A stretch of DNA of 40,079 nt, from contig PFDQ01000041.1 of the NCBI GenBank assembly GCA_002772815.1, positions 1 through 40,079 on the forward strand, in the 5' to 3' direction. The notes under the pieces were generated by a model. It was not told the origin of the DNA, searched no databases, and saw nothing but the letters and a program-made list of their open reading frames with translations. This DNA is from Candidatus Peregrinibacteria bacterium CG10_big_fil_rev_8_21_14_0_10_42_8. GTDB lineage: Bacteria > Patescibacteriota > Gracilibacteria > Peribacterales > Peribacteraceae. Of the stretch, positions 565 to 9,625 are shown in pieces. The position numbers were made by a program, and so were the translations under genes. The stretch's first letter is position 1; each line of letters begins with the position of its first letter.

Positions 565-639
<75 letters not shown>

Positions 640-5465: not shown

Positions 5466-6785
5466 ATGGTACTCTTTCCTGCGATGAAGATCGCTCCAAA
5501 GATTGCGGCACCTGTTCTCCTTGCAACACTCTGCGCAGTAATGTTAATGGGATTTTTGTGGCTACAATTAACTGAATCCACAAAACTTTTACAAGGCAAG
5601 CGTTTCAATGATACAGACCTCTTTACAACACCATCAAACGGTGTATCAGACCAAATTATTGATACAGATGACATCTCCCTACTCCACCTTAGAGAAGGTG
5701 ATATTTTTGCAATGCGTGGAGAATGGGAAGACGCACAAGCAGAATACGAACTCTCTGTAAAAACAAACGGCGGACTACCTGCACTACGTAAACTTGCAAC
5801 CGCACAAATGCAACGACGAGACATGAAAGGAGTACGATCAACACTAAAGAAAATGAAAAATGCAGGAGCACGAGAAGAAGACGTACTGCTTCTCGAAACA
5901 ATCATTCAGTTACGTTCAGGCGAACTTATCGATGCACAAAAAACATTAGAAGCTGCAGAAGACTCACCACAACAACATTACGGACTTGCTCTATTGTCTA
6001 TTATCCAAGGAAACCATAAGCAAGCAGCTGACGAACTTGCCCTTACCACCGAGGGGTGGGATCCTGTCCTTCGGTCTTACGCACGAACACTTCAATCTGC
6101 GTATGACGAATTTATGCTATTCCCTGAGGGGTCTGACTTGCACCTTATAACACTTCTTGCGCGTGCACTTGCTCAGGTACAAGAATGCGAACTTGCCTTA
6201 CCTCTGCTTATTCAGGTTACCTCTGTCAAGAATGATTACCGTGATGCATGGGTTGTACAGGGCTACTGCGAGCTTGTTACAGAACGGTCTGAACAATCAC
6301 TTGCCTCTCTCGAACATGCATACTCTCTCGACCCACAAAAACCAGAAATACAATACTTCCTCGCCCGCGCATACGGCTCACTTCATGAATATCAAAATGC
6401 AATTACCTTCTTTGAATACTCACTGAGCAACGGGTTTCAGCCACAAGCAGAAATACGCAGACTCATCGCAAAAAATGCACTCGAGATTGGTAACGCAGGT
6501 CTCGCACTCGACCAGTACGATGCACTCACCTTAGAGCCAAACGCTACATTCGAAATATTTGAAGGATATATCTCTGCAGCTATTGCACTCGGAAGAGTAG
6601 AAGAAGCATATACAAAAGCAAACCTTGCAACTACTCGGTGGTCAGATGACGCACGAACGTACGACCTCCTTGCAGGAGTCGCTATTCAACTCAATAAAAA
6701 AGATGATGCGCGAAAGGCTTTGCAAAAAGCACTCGACATTAATCCAAACCTTGAAAGTGCAAAGCAGAAGATGGAGTCTCTCTAA
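5466..6785 (+). CDS. Membrane-anchored tetratricopeptide-repeat protein
   Basis: N-terminal TM helix; several TPR-like helix pairs (AYSLDPQKPEIQYFLARAY, ALQKALDINPN). Start could be 5484. Confidence 0.85.
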   Translation: MVLFPAMKIAPKIAAPVLLATLCAVMLMGFLWLQLTESTKLLQGKRFNDTDLFTTPSNGVSDQIIDTDDISLLHLREGDIFAMRGEWEDAQAEYELSVKTNGGLPALRKLATAQMQRRDMKGVRSTLKKMKNAGAREEDVLLLETIIQLRSGELIDAQKTLEAAEDSPQQHYGLALLSIIQGNHKQAADELALTTEGWDPVLRSYARTLQSAYDEFMLFPEGSDLHLITLLARALAQVQECELALPLLIQVTSVKNDYRDAWVVQGYCELVTERSEQSLASLEHAYSLDPQKPEIQYFLARAYGSLHEYQNAITFFEYSLSNGFQPQAEIRRLIAKNALEIGNAGLALDQYDALTLEPNATFEIFEGYISAAIALGRVEEAYTKANLATTRWSDDARTYDLLAGVAIQLNKKDDARKALQKALDINPNLESAKQKMESL

Positions 6786-6835
6786 TAACAAAGGGGTTCT
6801 GTTGGGAACATCTACGGTTTTCCCATGTGAATAGC

Positions 6836-6866
6836 AAAAAAGACCAGAATCAAGTGTCTCTGGCCT
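6836..6866 (-). terminator. Intrinsic terminator (minus strand)
   Basis: Minus strand AGGCCAGA-10 nt loop-TCTGGTCT then TTTTT; the stem has a G-U pair on the minus strand that is an A-C mismatch on plus. Confidence 0.7.
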
Positions 6867-7234
6867 TCTTTGTTGTGTTAATGCTTCCGAGCTATCTGCA
6901 ACTATTCTGATGAAGGGAGTTGCGAGCCTATGGAAACCACAGTGAGGTGAGGTGACCCCGATTCCCTGCCTTGCTACGGTATCTCGTTTATTCTCGCTAC
7001 CGGACGAGTCCTTCGACCAGAATCCAAGACGAGGCAAAATGCCAAGGGACTCATGAAGAATTAGTGGGATGCACGCTGTAGAGCGACCTCTCATCAACAG
7101 AGCGTCATCGCAGAGCAGAGAGGGCGATAGGCACGTTCTGTGCACATCGCCCTCTCCGTGTTCCTCTTTTTGTGTGTGTATTGGTGTTGTGAAAGTGTAT
7201 ATTTTTGTGTCAGATCCGCTTCAGTAAGCAAATC
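6836..7234 (-). ncRNA. Candidate structured non-coding RNA (~400 nt), family not recognised
   Basis: Bounded by a promoter (7240-7268) and a terminator (6836-6866); at least seven hairpins; 127 of 240 nt are G/C in 6901-7140; no credible ORF. Confidence 0.55.
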
Positions 7235-7239
7235 AGATT

Positions 7240-7268
7240 ATTATACGTGTATTAGTATGGTATAGCAA
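7240..7268 (-). promoter_or_regulatory. Sigma70-type promoter pointing into the 6836-7234 element
   Basis: Minus strand TTGCTA(7268-63)-17 nt-TATAAT(7245-40). Confidence 0.7.
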
Positions 7269-7363
7269 CTGATTAAGCTAGACGGATAGCAAGAACATGC
7301 TATGAATACATTTGTTACTCATGAAGCTCTATACAGTGCTGATATTCGCTATAAGCTAGGTAT

Positions 7364-8695
7364 ATGCCACACCTGCTCCGCACCACTATTATGATCGTTT
7401 CTGCCATGATTGGCAGCGCTATTGTTCTCGCAGGGCTCATCATTGTTGTAGGAAACCTTACAACGTACGGCAGTATTCCTGCAGATTTCCTACCATCAGA
7501 ACACACCGTTGCCATCTTTCATAATACGAATCAAGAGACACTCTCAAAGTGGTCGAGCCACTTCCCTGCCCTATCAGAGGCTTCTTATGGCGAAGAAGCA
7601 ATTATTGGAATTATACAAAATTCAGATAGCACATTTAGCGCCGCAATTTTCCAAAAATCAGGCACGGGAACACTTGGACAATACAACCTACAATTCACAG
7701 ATTCAAAAATACAATCTCTCATTGGTAAGCAACAATTTCCAGTGAGTAAAAATCGCTCCTATAAACTACTCGCTGAACATCACGGTCTTCACTCATGGAT
7801 ATATATGAAAGTATCAGCGCTACCTGCGCCTCACGGCCTTCGTAATACTATCGAGCATGCACTCCTCTATAGAGATAGCAACTACATTGGTATTCAAGAA
7901 GAAATTGACCACATCCAAATATCACAAGAGACGGATCAAACCTTCATCAGTGCACCTCTTCAGGATGCCACATTGTCAGGTACAATCTTTAGAGCAAGTA
8001 TTGGAGAACCAACAGTAGTCTGGAAAAGCGTTCATCAACTCCTTTCAAAGGAGAATACCATCATCGTCGACGGCATCATTCAAGAAAAACTTACTGACTG
8101 GGGAAACGACATCAGTCTAGAACATGACATCATGTCACTACTGAGTGAACCATCCACGCTTCACATCACTGAATCTGGTGGAGTAATAAACATCCTTATT
8201 GAAGGCTCTGTGAAAAACACACAAGATCGTGACCGCATTTTAGATAGGATACATTCAAGCTACGCATCAATATTACCTACAAGCACGATTACTCGACGCG
8301 TTCTTGATAAACGATTTTCATCGGTAGATATCAGGCATGATGAATCCCAAATTACCAATTCCCAGTTCCGCAATGGAAACTGGACAATCAGAGAAACCCT
8401 TTTCCAGAAAAATACACACGGTATGATAACAGCAACTCATAAAAATAATTACCTTCTCAGTAATAATCTACACACGATAGAAGAAGCAATTACCTCAATA
8501 TCGACCACGTCACCACAATCCACAGCAGGTTTTATAGTAAACCAAGGCCTAATAGATCTCTCAAAAGTACAGGTTCTTCTTACTCCCATATTAGCACCGA
8601 AAGACCGCAAAACATCATTAGAAGACTTCGCAAATACGCTACAATGGGATACGATAATCAACGGATTAATCATGCAAAAAGATCTATTTTTCTAG
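7364..8695 (+). CDS. Hypothetical membrane-anchored protein
   Basis: 443-aa ORF with an N-terminal hydrophobic helix; no family motif recognised. Confidence 0.75.
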   Translation: MPHLLRTTIMIVSAMIGSAIVLAGLIIVVGNLTTYGSIPADFLPSEHTVAIFHNTNQETLSKWSSHFPALSEASYGEEAIIGIIQNSDSTFSAAIFQKSGTGTLGQYNLQFTDSKIQSLIGKQQFPVSKNRSYKLLAEHHGLHSWIYMKVSALPAPHGLRNTIEHALLYRDSNYIGIQEEIDHIQISQETDQTFISAPLQDATLSGTIFRASIGEPTVVWKSVHQLLSKENTIIVDGIIQEKLTDWGNDISLEHDIMSLLSEPSTLHITESGGVINILIEGSVKNTQDRDRILDRIHSSYASILPTSTITRRVLDKRFSSVDIRHDESQITNSQFRNGNWTIRETLFQKNTHGMITATHKNNYLLSNNLHTIEEAITSISTTSPQSTAGFIVNQGLIDLSKVQVLLTPILAPKDRKTSLEDFANTLQWDTIINGLIMQKDLFF

Positions 8696-8731: not shown

Positions 8732-9625
8732 ATGTCACTCCTCAAACCAGCCAAATTTTTTCTCGGCCTCTCATCAGCACTTGTTATAGTGAGCATTACT
8801 CTCTTTATTGTGCCAGGTCCACGCCTTAGTATCGATTTTACTGGTGGAACAATGATGGAAGTCCGCATTCCAGCAAATACAACAAAAGAGCAGTTTGAAG
8901 ATGCAATAAACACTTTTGAATCCGAAAAAGAGCTCGGTAATGTCACCCTAACCATGACAAAGGATAGCAGCGTGCTACTTCGAATGAGAGATATGAGTAA
9001 CGAGGAGCACATTGCACTCCAGCGTCACCTACAAACTGAACTTGGACAAATTAAGGAACTACAATTTACAACAATTGGACCGACAGTTGGAGCAACACTG
9101 AAGAAAAGGTCATTCTGGGCACTTGGAATCGCATCACTAGCTATTGTTCTCTACATTGCCTTTGTGTTCCGCAAAATCCCTCGCAAACTCAGTCCTTGGA
9201 GATTCGGTATCATTGCAGTGATTACCCTATTACATGATGTCATTATCACCATGGGTATCTTTGTTATCATTAGCCAAACAACAACCTTCGAGTTTGATAC
9301 GCTCTTTATTACAGCCCTTCTCACAATTCTTGGATATTCCGTAAACGATACTATTGTTATCTTCGACCGTATTCGTGATAATCTGGCTGACATTGGGCGA
9401 AAGGAAGACTTTGCAACTGTTGCAGACCGAAGTCTTAGTGATAGCGTTACACGCTCCATTAATACATCTGTATCCACTCTCATTATGCTTTGTAGCCTCT
9501 TTGTTCTCGGATCAGAGAGTATTCGATGGTTTGTACTAACGCTCATTGTAGGAAGCATTATTGGTACCTATTCATCACTCTTCCTTGCAACACCACTTCT
9601 CGTGTATTGGAAGAAAAAGGCATAA
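8732..9625 (+). CDS. secF: Protein translocase subunit SecF
   Basis: SIDFTGGT, TIGPTVG, LLHDV, LTILGYSVNDTIVIFDRIRDN, RSINTS, GTYSSLFLATP. Confidence 0.96.
   Translation: MSLLKPAKFFLGLSSALVIVSITLFIVPGPRLSIDFTGGTMMEVRIPANTTKEQFEDAINTFESEKELGNVTLTMTKDSSVLLRMRDMSNEEHIALQRHLQTELGQIKELQFTTIGPTVGATLKKRSFWALGIASLAIVLYIAFVFRKIPRKLSPWRFGIIAVITLLHDVIITMGIFVIISQTTTFEFDTLFITALLTILGYSVNDTIVIFDRIRDNLADIGRKEDFATVADRSLSDSVTRSINTSVSTLIMLCSLFVLGSESIRWFVLTLIVGSIIGTYSSLFLATPLLVYWKKKA

Follow-up and report, generated by a model that had tools for sequence, protein, structure and literature searches.

Large RNAs with a conserved tertiary structure are rare in bacteria, and to our knowledge almost all of those that have been studied are ribozymes, cores of ribonucleoproteins or self-assembling particles. 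The OLE, GOLLD, ROOL and raiA-motif RNAs are large, ‘ornate’ bacterial non-coding RNAs (ncRNAs) whose function is unknown or only partly known. Here we describe an RNA gene of about 400 nucleotides (nt) at positions 7234-6836 (minus strand) of contig PFDQ01000041.1 from Candidatus Peregrinibacteria bacterium CG10_big_fil_rev_8_21_14_0_10_42_8 (assembly GCA_002772815.1), a member of the order Peribacterales in the candidate phyla radiation (CPR). Positions 1-40,079 of this contig were analysed, referred to below as the window, and coordinates without a contig or locus name are positions in it. Like the ornate RNAs, the Peribacterales RNA is stand-alone, lineage-restricted, unusually large and elaborately folded, with conserved tertiary contacts, strong covariation, no coding potential and no obvious regulatory target. 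Unlike them, it is smaller, has no homology to Rfam 15 entries, is confined to a CPR order, is usually duplicated in the genome and was not found in phage or viral sequence.

An earlier interpretation of the bare DNA (the sequence-only reading) had offered three possibilities for the locus: an undescribed large ncRNA, a very divergent housekeeping RNA, or a translationally locked small-peptide mRNA. The first is borne out by the absence of any Rfam match, by strong covariation, by conservation throughout the order and by contigs from RNA libraries that are confined to the core of the RNA. We consider it very probable that this is a real, new family of structured ncRNAs, and probable that the locus encodes, as a gene standing on its own, a stable and non-coding RNA of this Peribacterales family that acts in trans and through its fold. 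As far as sequence and predicted structure can tell, the family is new in both respects, with no detectable relation to any of the 4227 families of Rfam 15 and no paper found that describes it, and it is essentially restricted to Peribacterales.

Conserved fold of the RNA

Homologues were gathered from related genomes, as the sequence-only reading had advised, and what they conserve is base pairs, not a reading frame. An alignment of seven sequences from the genus of the source organism (75% mean column identity) gives a consensus fold of 112 pairs, 25 of them with compensatory changes, that spans the 5' hairpin, the P2 hairpin, the core, the 3' domain and the terminator. For the core, 99 matches (92 distinct) were aligned by fitting them to a covariance model, and 54 pairs in ten helices were counted, comprising the helices of the model and two elements outside it, namely the second stem of a pseudoknot and a loop-loop contact. 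Over the 92 distinct sequences, 92.8% of the cells in these columns are paired, compared with 79.6 ± 0.3% in shuffled alignments (reached in 0 of 500) and 37.5-53.3% in slid controls, where the 3' partners were moved by 1-3 columns. Pairs changed on both sides number 45 of 54, as against 27.0 ± 2.0 in the shuffles and 15-26 in the slid controls, and the covariation score is 0.399, as against 0.066-0.083 when slid. None of the five structure measures was reached by any of the 500 shuffles. Because related sequences can beat shuffles even without a structure, the slid controls and the two helices outside the model are the fairer tests. The compensatory substitutions that characterize a structured ncRNA are present beyond the level of these controls.

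In the core, a closing helix encloses a junction of several helices (table 1). All eight pairs of the hairpin at 7109-7068, which had been predicted from the bare sequence as a long bulged hairpin, covary in the 92-sequence set. The four helices of the branched arm (helices 4-7) are 99.6, 89.7, 81.6 and 89.9% paired, and all 16 of their pairs covary. Next to the arm lies an H-type pseudoknot, whose stem 1 (helix 8) is 96.2% paired, with five of six pairs covarying; stem 2 (helix 9), formed by the loop of stem 1, is 95.6% paired with three of four covarying, although it stands outside the model used for alignment. At the fourth pair of stem 2, 35 sequences have C-G, 33 have U-A and eight have A-U. 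The A-rich third strand of the pseudoknot, AUAAACGAGA at 6991-6982, is conserved as well. The second element outside the model is a contact between two hairpin loops, GAGGU and ACCUC (helix 3), 83.6% paired and with four of five pairs changed on both sides; among its compensated forms are AAGG/CCUU and, for three of four second gene copies compared within the genus, AGGC/GCCU. Downstream of the core, the GGCUCA...GAUAGCC stem of the 3' domain, which corresponds to a stem predicted at 6923-6898, is supported in the genus and retained across the family with eight pairs, seven of them compensatory. Nucleotides in junctions and loops are conserved as strongly as the helices (e.g. CUCCCCAGUG, CCGGUACGGGGA and GAGAAACAAG, near-invariant in 74 sequences), and the variable parts of the RNA are helix tips and linkers.

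Of the eight stems proposed in the sequence-only reading, two had to be re-paired, and both the pseudoknot and the loop-loop contact had been overlooked. The 5' hairpin (P1) recurs in the minimum free energy (MFE) fold and in the genus consensus fold, and the A/C-rich linker expected after it is indeed there, varying in length and sequence within the genus. P2, likewise anticipated, shows compensatory changes at four pairs among the seven genus sequences. In the proposed arm at 7052-7006, where GAGTCC was to pair with GGACTC, the complementarity exists in the sequence and the enclosed GGCA-TTT-TGCC hairpin is kept, but the outer pairing is not supported: comparative data join GAGUCC (7052-7047) to UGGAUUC (7026-7020), not to GGACTC (7011-7006), and the GGA/CUCGU segment goes to two other helices, 7059-7055/7014-7010 and the pseudoknot stem 7009-7004/6997-6992. 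Of the hairpin drawn at 7002-6977, the GGUA/UACC pairing (7001-6998/6981-6978) is real, but it forms the second stem of the pseudoknot and not a plain hairpin. The small hairpin at 6942-6928 is complementary in the source genome only and is not kept by congeners; the genus fold instead pairs UUUCC (6936-6932) with GGAAG (6888-6884).

The gene, its signals and its strand

The RNA gene occupies a 578-bp gap between two open reading frames (ORFs) of the plus strand and is itself on the opposite strand. The ORF at 5466-6785 (+) encodes a TPR protein, and the one at 7364-8695 (+), of 443 aa, has no Pfam match at E ≤ 0.001. The GC content assigned earlier to the core (127 of 240 nt in 6901-7140) is exact, and the flanking ORFs have 44.5% and 41.1%. 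The proposed promoter and the proposed terminator are both present. Promoter-like sites in the region number three, compared with 2.4 ± 1.4 in shuffled sequence, and the promoter match by itself is within chance; the layout TTGCnn-17-TAnnAT nevertheless recurs at an equal distance from the start GATTTGC in all six congeners whose upstream sequence could be aligned, and this GATTTGC start is invariant in all seven genus sequences. The terminator is found in the MFE and consensus folds but was not listed by a simple scan; in 87 of the 92 family members a run of at least five T begins 62-101 nt past the core. A gene downstream on the same strand and in the same transcript, as would be expected of a cis-acting leader or riboswitch, is lacking, since the terminator at 6866-6836 comes first and the gene that follows it, 5466-6785, is encoded by the other strand.

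Assignment to the minus strand, also claimed earlier, is upheld by two kinds of evidence. The MFE fold of 7234-6836 (-) has -132.8 kcal/mol, with z = -4.34 relative to dinucleotide shuffles, none of 100 being as stable, while the reverse complement gives z = -1.03 and 14 of 100 shuffles are as stable. In addition, U·G or G·U pairs are widespread in the 92 family sequences (pair 12/310 in 88, 25/69 in 60 and 207/284 in 51 sequences); such conserved pairs would be C·A mismatches on the plus strand.

In other genera the promoters predicted by a consensus scan lie about 200-300 nt before the core, as against 114 nt here, and these genera appear, on that prediction, to carry an extra structured 5' domain ahead of the core, at the place of the A/C-rich linker. 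The predicted total length would be roughly 530-570 nt in those genera and about 400 nt in the window.

Reading frames within the RNA are not maintained. The 17-aa ORF MCTERAYRPLCSAMTLC noticed earlier is present, but its ATG is kept in only three of the seven genus sequences. A second ORF, of 167 aa and without a Pfam match, starts inside the RNA; the closest relative has 78 aa of it, and the others have at most 60 aa, in different frames. Across the core, a given reading frame stays open in 39 of the 92 sequences at most. The locked small-peptide mRNA envisaged earlier is contradicted by this lack of any conserved frame, and we rejected a protein-coding reading for the same reason, together with a plus-strand leader, for which the near-shuffle stability of the plus-strand fold and the conserved G·U pairs were decisive.

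Table 1. Features of the RNA gene and their positions in the window (core figures refer to the 92-sequence set).
Feature	Position	Strand	Evidence
Sigma-70-type promoter, TTGCTA (7268-7263), 17 nt, TATAAT (7245-7240)	7240-7268	minus	10/12 consensus matches; same layout in 6/6 congeners
P1, 5'-terminal hairpin from predicted transcript start	7213-7234	minus	MFE fold; genus fold with 9 pairs, one compensatory
5' A/C-rich unpaired linker	7157-7212	minus	unpaired in MFE and genus folds; variable in genus alignment
P2, hairpin GGAGAGGGCGAUG...UAUCGCCCUCUC, contains start of the non-conserved 17-aa ORF	7118-7156	minus	MFE and genus folds
Conserved core	6934-7125	minus	covariance models R1 and R2 match end to end, 137.5 and 146 bits
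Core closing helix, 5' strand UCUCUGCUCUGC, pairs with 6974-6963	7110-7121	minus	95.7% paired; 5/11 pairs changed on both sides
Core closing helix, 3' strand GCAAGGCAGGGA	6963-6974	minus	pairs with 7121-7110
Hairpin 7104-7097/7079-7072, loop displays GAGGU (7090-7086)	7072-7104	minus	8/8 pairs changed on both sides
Branched arm, 7059-7055/7014-7010, 7052-7047/7026-7020, variable tip 7045-7041/7035-7030	7010-7059	minus	helices 4-7
H-type pseudoknot, stem 1 7009-7004/6997-6992, stem 2 7001-6998/6981-6978	6978-7009	minus	covariation
Hairpin 6959-6956/6947-6944, loop displays ACCUC (6953-6949), partner of GAGGU 7090-7086	6944-6959	minus	helix 10, 92.2% paired
3' domain, UUUCC/GGAAG closing pairs around GGCUCGCAACU...AGUUGCAGAUAGCU	6884-6936	minus	genus fold with compensatory pairs
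3' A/C-rich single strand, family consensus ACACAAACACAAAAAGG	6867-6883	minus	several columns conserved at 90% or more
Intrinsic terminator, GGCCAGA/UCUGGUC stem, then six U	6836-6866	minus	MFE and genus folds; T-run in 87/92

Distribution, presence in RNA libraries and relation to known RNAs

Searches with blastn find the RNA in 7 of 7 congeners and in 17 of 24 genomes of the family. A pattern scan of one genome per species returned 107 stretches, of which seven were dropped as chance matches after reading and 100 are genuine; nearly all of the 80 titles listed for the 107 name Peribacteria or Peregrinibacteria. A covariance model of the 195-position core, built from 74 sequences (R1), detects the RNA in all 15 genomes of the family in a class-level sample. 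Peribacterales comprises this family only, and R1 finds the RNA in 40 of 41 genomes from the order. Two copies occur in 31 of the 41, one copy in nine and none in one. Outside the order, R1 gives weak matches in 2 of 135 other genomes of the class, and the rebuilt model R2 in 3 of 135, two of which come from its own training set; matches this weak and partly derived from training do not establish a class-wide family. Viral contigs and phage records yielded no match, and a phage or mobile origin was rejected on this ground.

The first copy is syntenic. Of the 107 loci of the pattern scan, 53 have a divergent SecF homologue upstream (84 having enough flank), and 53 have a convergent TPR-gene homologue downstream (75 having enough flank). 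The 443-aa ORF of the window stands directly upstream of SecF (8732-9625) and by position should be SecD; its homologues adjoin the RNA in 32 of the 107 loci. In the window's genus the second copy resides between genes for an SLH-domain protein and a TrhO-like rhodanese, a context that is not common to other genera. Beside the second copy of one other genome (G017), a 179-aa ORF (L181:911-1450, plus strand) shows a weak match to the IS200-like Y1 transposase (E = 5.9e-5; 23.6 bits, cut-off 23). Thirteen pairs of copies share a contig; 11 of these are separated by 20-33 kb, each of the 11 in convergent orientation. In the source assembly (G000), contig C52 (58298-58419, plus strand; L200:1501-1622) contains an 18.3-bit partial match to model positions 22-150 that retains the pseudoknot module. 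It sits, like the second copy of congeners, between the SLH-protein and TrhO-like genes, at a contig end, the TrhO gene being split across the ends of contigs C52 and C40; this match is a second, far more divergent copy or a remnant of the RNA family. A tree of 190 aligned core positions does not cleanly separate the two paralogues: in three genera the second copies cluster with the first copy of their own genus, and in others they group apart.

Fifteen sequencing runs share a small part of the words of a 701-nt stretch, and 13 of them are recorded as RNA. Four runs from four studies (marine, salt-marsh and seawater metatranscriptomes) were compared with positions 6500-7600. All six fitting contigs (85-288 nt, with identities from 99% or more down to 90-95%) fall inside 6865-7113, every one of the four runs contributing, and none reaches the flanking ORFs; window parts without contig cover were not counted as evidence of silence. 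One contig is a 243-nt insert covering 6865-7107 with adapters on both sides. This pattern fits an RNA much more abundant than the mRNAs of its neighbours.

The comparison with Rfam 15 that had been proposed along with the sequence-only reading was made with gathering scores, or with E cut-offs where these are given, and the RNA matches no family. At gathering scores the whole window has nothing at the RNA locus; the only hit elsewhere is a tRNA gene at 568-639 (minus strand; RF00005, 62.7 bits). At E ≤ 10, the locus (901 bases) draws two chance-level hits, AniS with 18.3 bits (cut-off 50) and a fragment of a human long ncRNA with 13.3 bits (cut-off 40). Eighteen homologous loci likewise have nothing on the RNA, their four hits at E ≤ 0.1 being microRNA-family matches to hairpins outside it, and five further loci, including distant and second-copy ones, have no match at E ≤ 1. 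Just 3' of the RNA copy of one congener (G007), a near-perfect inverted repeat of about 125 nt (L004:1866-1993) was matched spuriously by three microRNA-precursor families of plants or animals, at 33-41 bits and far below the cut-offs.

The literature was equally silent. No paper joining Peregrinibacteria with signal recognition particle (SRP) RNA or a structured RNA, or Peribacteria with the SRP, was found; broader searches turned up nothing on the RNA, one of them, loosely framed, returning unrelated papers only; and a bioRxiv preprint (10.64898/2026.10.21.760802) is without the lineage terms looked for.

The suspicion that the RNA might be a divergent housekeeping RNA arose from the source assembly itself (1.01 Mb, 60 contigs, 97.95% complete), where models of RNase P RNA, transfer-messenger RNA (tmRNA), 6S RNA and SRP RNA find none of the four, although rnpA (C26:7048-7392) and smpB (C24:2848-3261) are present. 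The Peribacterales RNA resembles RNase P RNA and tmRNA in size, in possessing a pseudoknot and in being a stand-alone gene with promoter and terminator, but their models do not match it: RF00010 has no match at the locus (E ≤ 10) or in the whole assembly, and RF00023 none at the locus, its only hits in the assembly being tRNAs. Congeners carry both besides the Peribacterales RNA. At loci apart from its homologue, RNase P RNA exceeds the cut-off in six of seven (131-153 bits) and tmRNA in all seven (75-92 bits), which led us to reject both identities; their genes in the source genome probably fell into assembly gaps.

6S RNA can occur as two paralogues in one genome, for example in Bacillus. 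The Peribacterales RNA shares this duplication and is, like 6S RNA, stable, abundant-looking, trans-acting and of a housekeeping type; it is, however, about twice as long and has a branched, pseudoknotted core in place of a rod with a central bubble. The 6S model (RF00013) matches neither the locus nor the source assembly. Full-length sub-threshold matches (22.8-44.2 bits, cut-off 46.4) occur at other loci in 9 of 18 genomes of the family (e.g. G009:C3:65318-65477 and G017:C3:168894-169043) and in 5 of 12 other genomes of the class, but in none of seven genomes of the window's genus, and they may represent a divergent 6S RNA in this lineage. A 6S identity for our RNA was rejected on account of its structure and of these matches elsewhere in the family.

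SRP RNA came into consideration because it appeared to be missing and because the closing helix of the core ends, as in SRP RNA, in a purine-rich strand (AAGGCAG); the gene also adjoins the secF operon in about half of the loci, in a lineage without recognizable SRP RNA. The core lacks an SRP-type tetraloop hairpin, however, and the models RF00169 and RF01854 match neither at the locus nor in the source assembly, nor, each, in any of 31 relatives; the small SRP RNA model finds nothing in 121 genomes of the phylum. The obligatory partner Ffh and its receptor FtsY were not found in the source assembly or in the relatives searched, and the SRP identity was rejected for this reason. Specifically, the Ffh M domain (PF02978), the SRP54 GTPase domain (PF00448) and TIGR00959 have no match in the assembly, and an SRP-GTPase motif string was not found in its six-frame translation. 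Among 41 genomes of the class, six have weak, partial SRP54-domain matches (18-23 bits, one just over the 22.7-bit cut-off), and among 101 genomes of the phylum none matches at E ≤ 1e-10. That many CPR bacteria lack two SRP subunits is already on record in a passage by Moreira et al. (2021, PMC8080830). SRP genes with APY09_ tags that a passage of PMC10768705 discusses relative to XH001n were taken as host genes and were not used. The housekeeping-RNA possibility raised by the sequence-only reading is therefore rejected, both for the RNase P RNA and tmRNA genes and the 6S-like matches at other loci and for the missing protein partner of SRP RNA.

Possible mode of action

The 5' hairpin and the terminator hairpin cap the transcript, and A/C-rich linkers set the core of about 190 nt apart. 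In the mechanism that we propose, this core, with its closing helix, junction, pseudoknot and loop-loop contact, would act through its three-dimensional shape, in the way of lineage-restricted housekeeping RNAs and not as an antisense regulator, a leader or an mRNA. Action through the fold is most likely because junctions and loops are as conserved as the helices and because neither a long single-stranded seed nor a reading frame is kept. Our tentative suggestion for the function itself is that the RNA serves as the RNA part of a ribonucleoprotein, either a protein-binding scaffold or an RNA that sequesters a protein; the conserved A/C-rich strand before the terminator is, judging by its conservation, a candidate protein-binding site. 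We favour such a particle and rank self-assembly, catalysis and antisense regulation after it.

Several observations weigh against this interpretation or loosen its support. No protein partner, ligand or target was identified, so that the ribonucleoprotein step is something we infer, and Hfq was not found in the source assembly, which removes the commonest binder of such 3' modules. Nor do the neighbours (TPR protein, 443-aa ORF and SecF; at the second copy, SLH protein and TrhO-like rhodanese) offer a functional link. The evidence of expression consists of assembled contigs, which carry neither strand, ends nor level; RNA libraries can contain DNA, and contig matching would likewise recover the best-conserved stretch of a relative's RNA. 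As for the structure, the pairing of the closing helix and of the nested helices is inflated, since the search pattern behind 61 of the 99 aligned sequences prescribes 21 nt of the former, and the latter were part of the model to which the sequences were fitted. The loop-loop contact is the weakest helix, its fifth pair being unpaired in 30 of 92 sequences. Finally, one complete-looking genome (G008, 98%) has no match and the second copy of the source genome resembles a remnant; the RNA, or one of its copies, may thus be dispensable.

ROOL, GOLLD and OLE RNAs have been reported to form homo-oligomers. An unlikely alternative is a self-assembling ornate RNA, in which the GAGG/CCUC pairing would join separate molecules into homo-oligomers and no protein partner would be obligatory, the fold itself being the product. 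The compactness of the pseudoknotted core and the covariation of the loop-loop contact agree with it, and covariation cannot distinguish intramolecular contacts from those between identical molecules. The paralogues, moreover, have different matched loop pairs in three of four congeners (L194/196, L195/197 and L193/198), GAGGU/ACCUC-type in one copy and AGGC/GCCU in the other, which would keep two assemblies apart; the second copy of G007 is without that hairpin. In most other genera, however, both copies carry GAGG/CCUC (L165/L180, L164/L189, L166/L190), so that separation of the copies is not general. No palindromic loop is conserved across the family, the core of about 190 nt is far smaller than ROOL, GOLLD and OLE, and no Rfam model of these RNAs matches.

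That the RNA is a new ribozyme, whose active site for processing some RNA, or itself, would be built from the pseudoknot together with the A-rich strand and invariant nucleotides of the junction, strikes us as improbable. The helix-like conservation of junctions and loops would suit it, and a pseudoknot combined with a tertiary contact is an architecture typical of catalytic RNAs. On the other hand, no Rfam ribozyme family matches, there is no exon, intron, repeat or mobile-element context, and the adapter-bearing contig runs unbroken over 6865-7107, giving no sign of cleavage in that part.

We hold it to be about as improbable that the RNA is a base-pairing small RNA or sponge. In that case mRNAs would be paired, or a regulator titrated, by its unpaired A/C-rich strands or by loops rich in C and U that resemble the 16S rRNA end. 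Such a role would be compatible with a stand-alone gene ending in a terminator, with the conservation of the A/C-rich strand just before it and with the CCUC and GAGG loops of the core; but these loops covary with one another and are hence occupied, the 5' linker is not conserved even in the genus, Hfq was not found in the source assembly, as already mentioned, and the size and conserved tertiary structure are unlike those of known antisense small RNAs.

A protein-coding or cis-regulatory element, be it one of the two ORFs (17 or 167 aa) or a plus-strand leader of the 443-aa ORF and secF, is very improbable: the ORFs do exist in the source genome and the region is upstream of the 443-aa ORF on the plus strand, but the ORFs are not conserved and the longer has no Pfam match, the plus strand folds poorly and turns conserved G·U pairs into mismatches, and the promoter and terminator are on the minus strand, where the next feature is the antisense of the convergent gene. 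A very divergent RNase P, transfer-messenger, SRP or 6S RNA is hardly credible, since, for all the suitability of its size to the first two and the failure to find RNase P RNA, tmRNA (despite rnpA and smpB) and SRP RNA in the source assembly, congeners carry RNase P RNA and tmRNA, and family members sub-threshold 6S-like matches, at other loci, the assembly has no match to the Ffh and SRP54-type models, and there are two copies per genome.

Beyond the ribonucleoprotein that we favour, it is conceivable, though rather unlikely, that the two paralogues make up the catalytic or organizing core of a machine found only in Peribacterales, that is, a new ribozyme or a self-assembling RNA particle. 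In one version, if true, the RNA would have replaced part of co-translational membrane targeting after the loss of Ffh, FtsY and SRP RNA, which would fit the conserved head-to-head position with the secF operon.

The RNA described here is a core and usually duplicated feature of a whole CPR order with genomes of about 1 Mb, in which little non-essential DNA survives. The conserved spacing of its copies, a defined pseudoknot and loop-loop contact and its presence in RNA libraries make it a target for work on its structure and partners, and it is a possible marker RNA for Peribacterales in metatranscriptomes.

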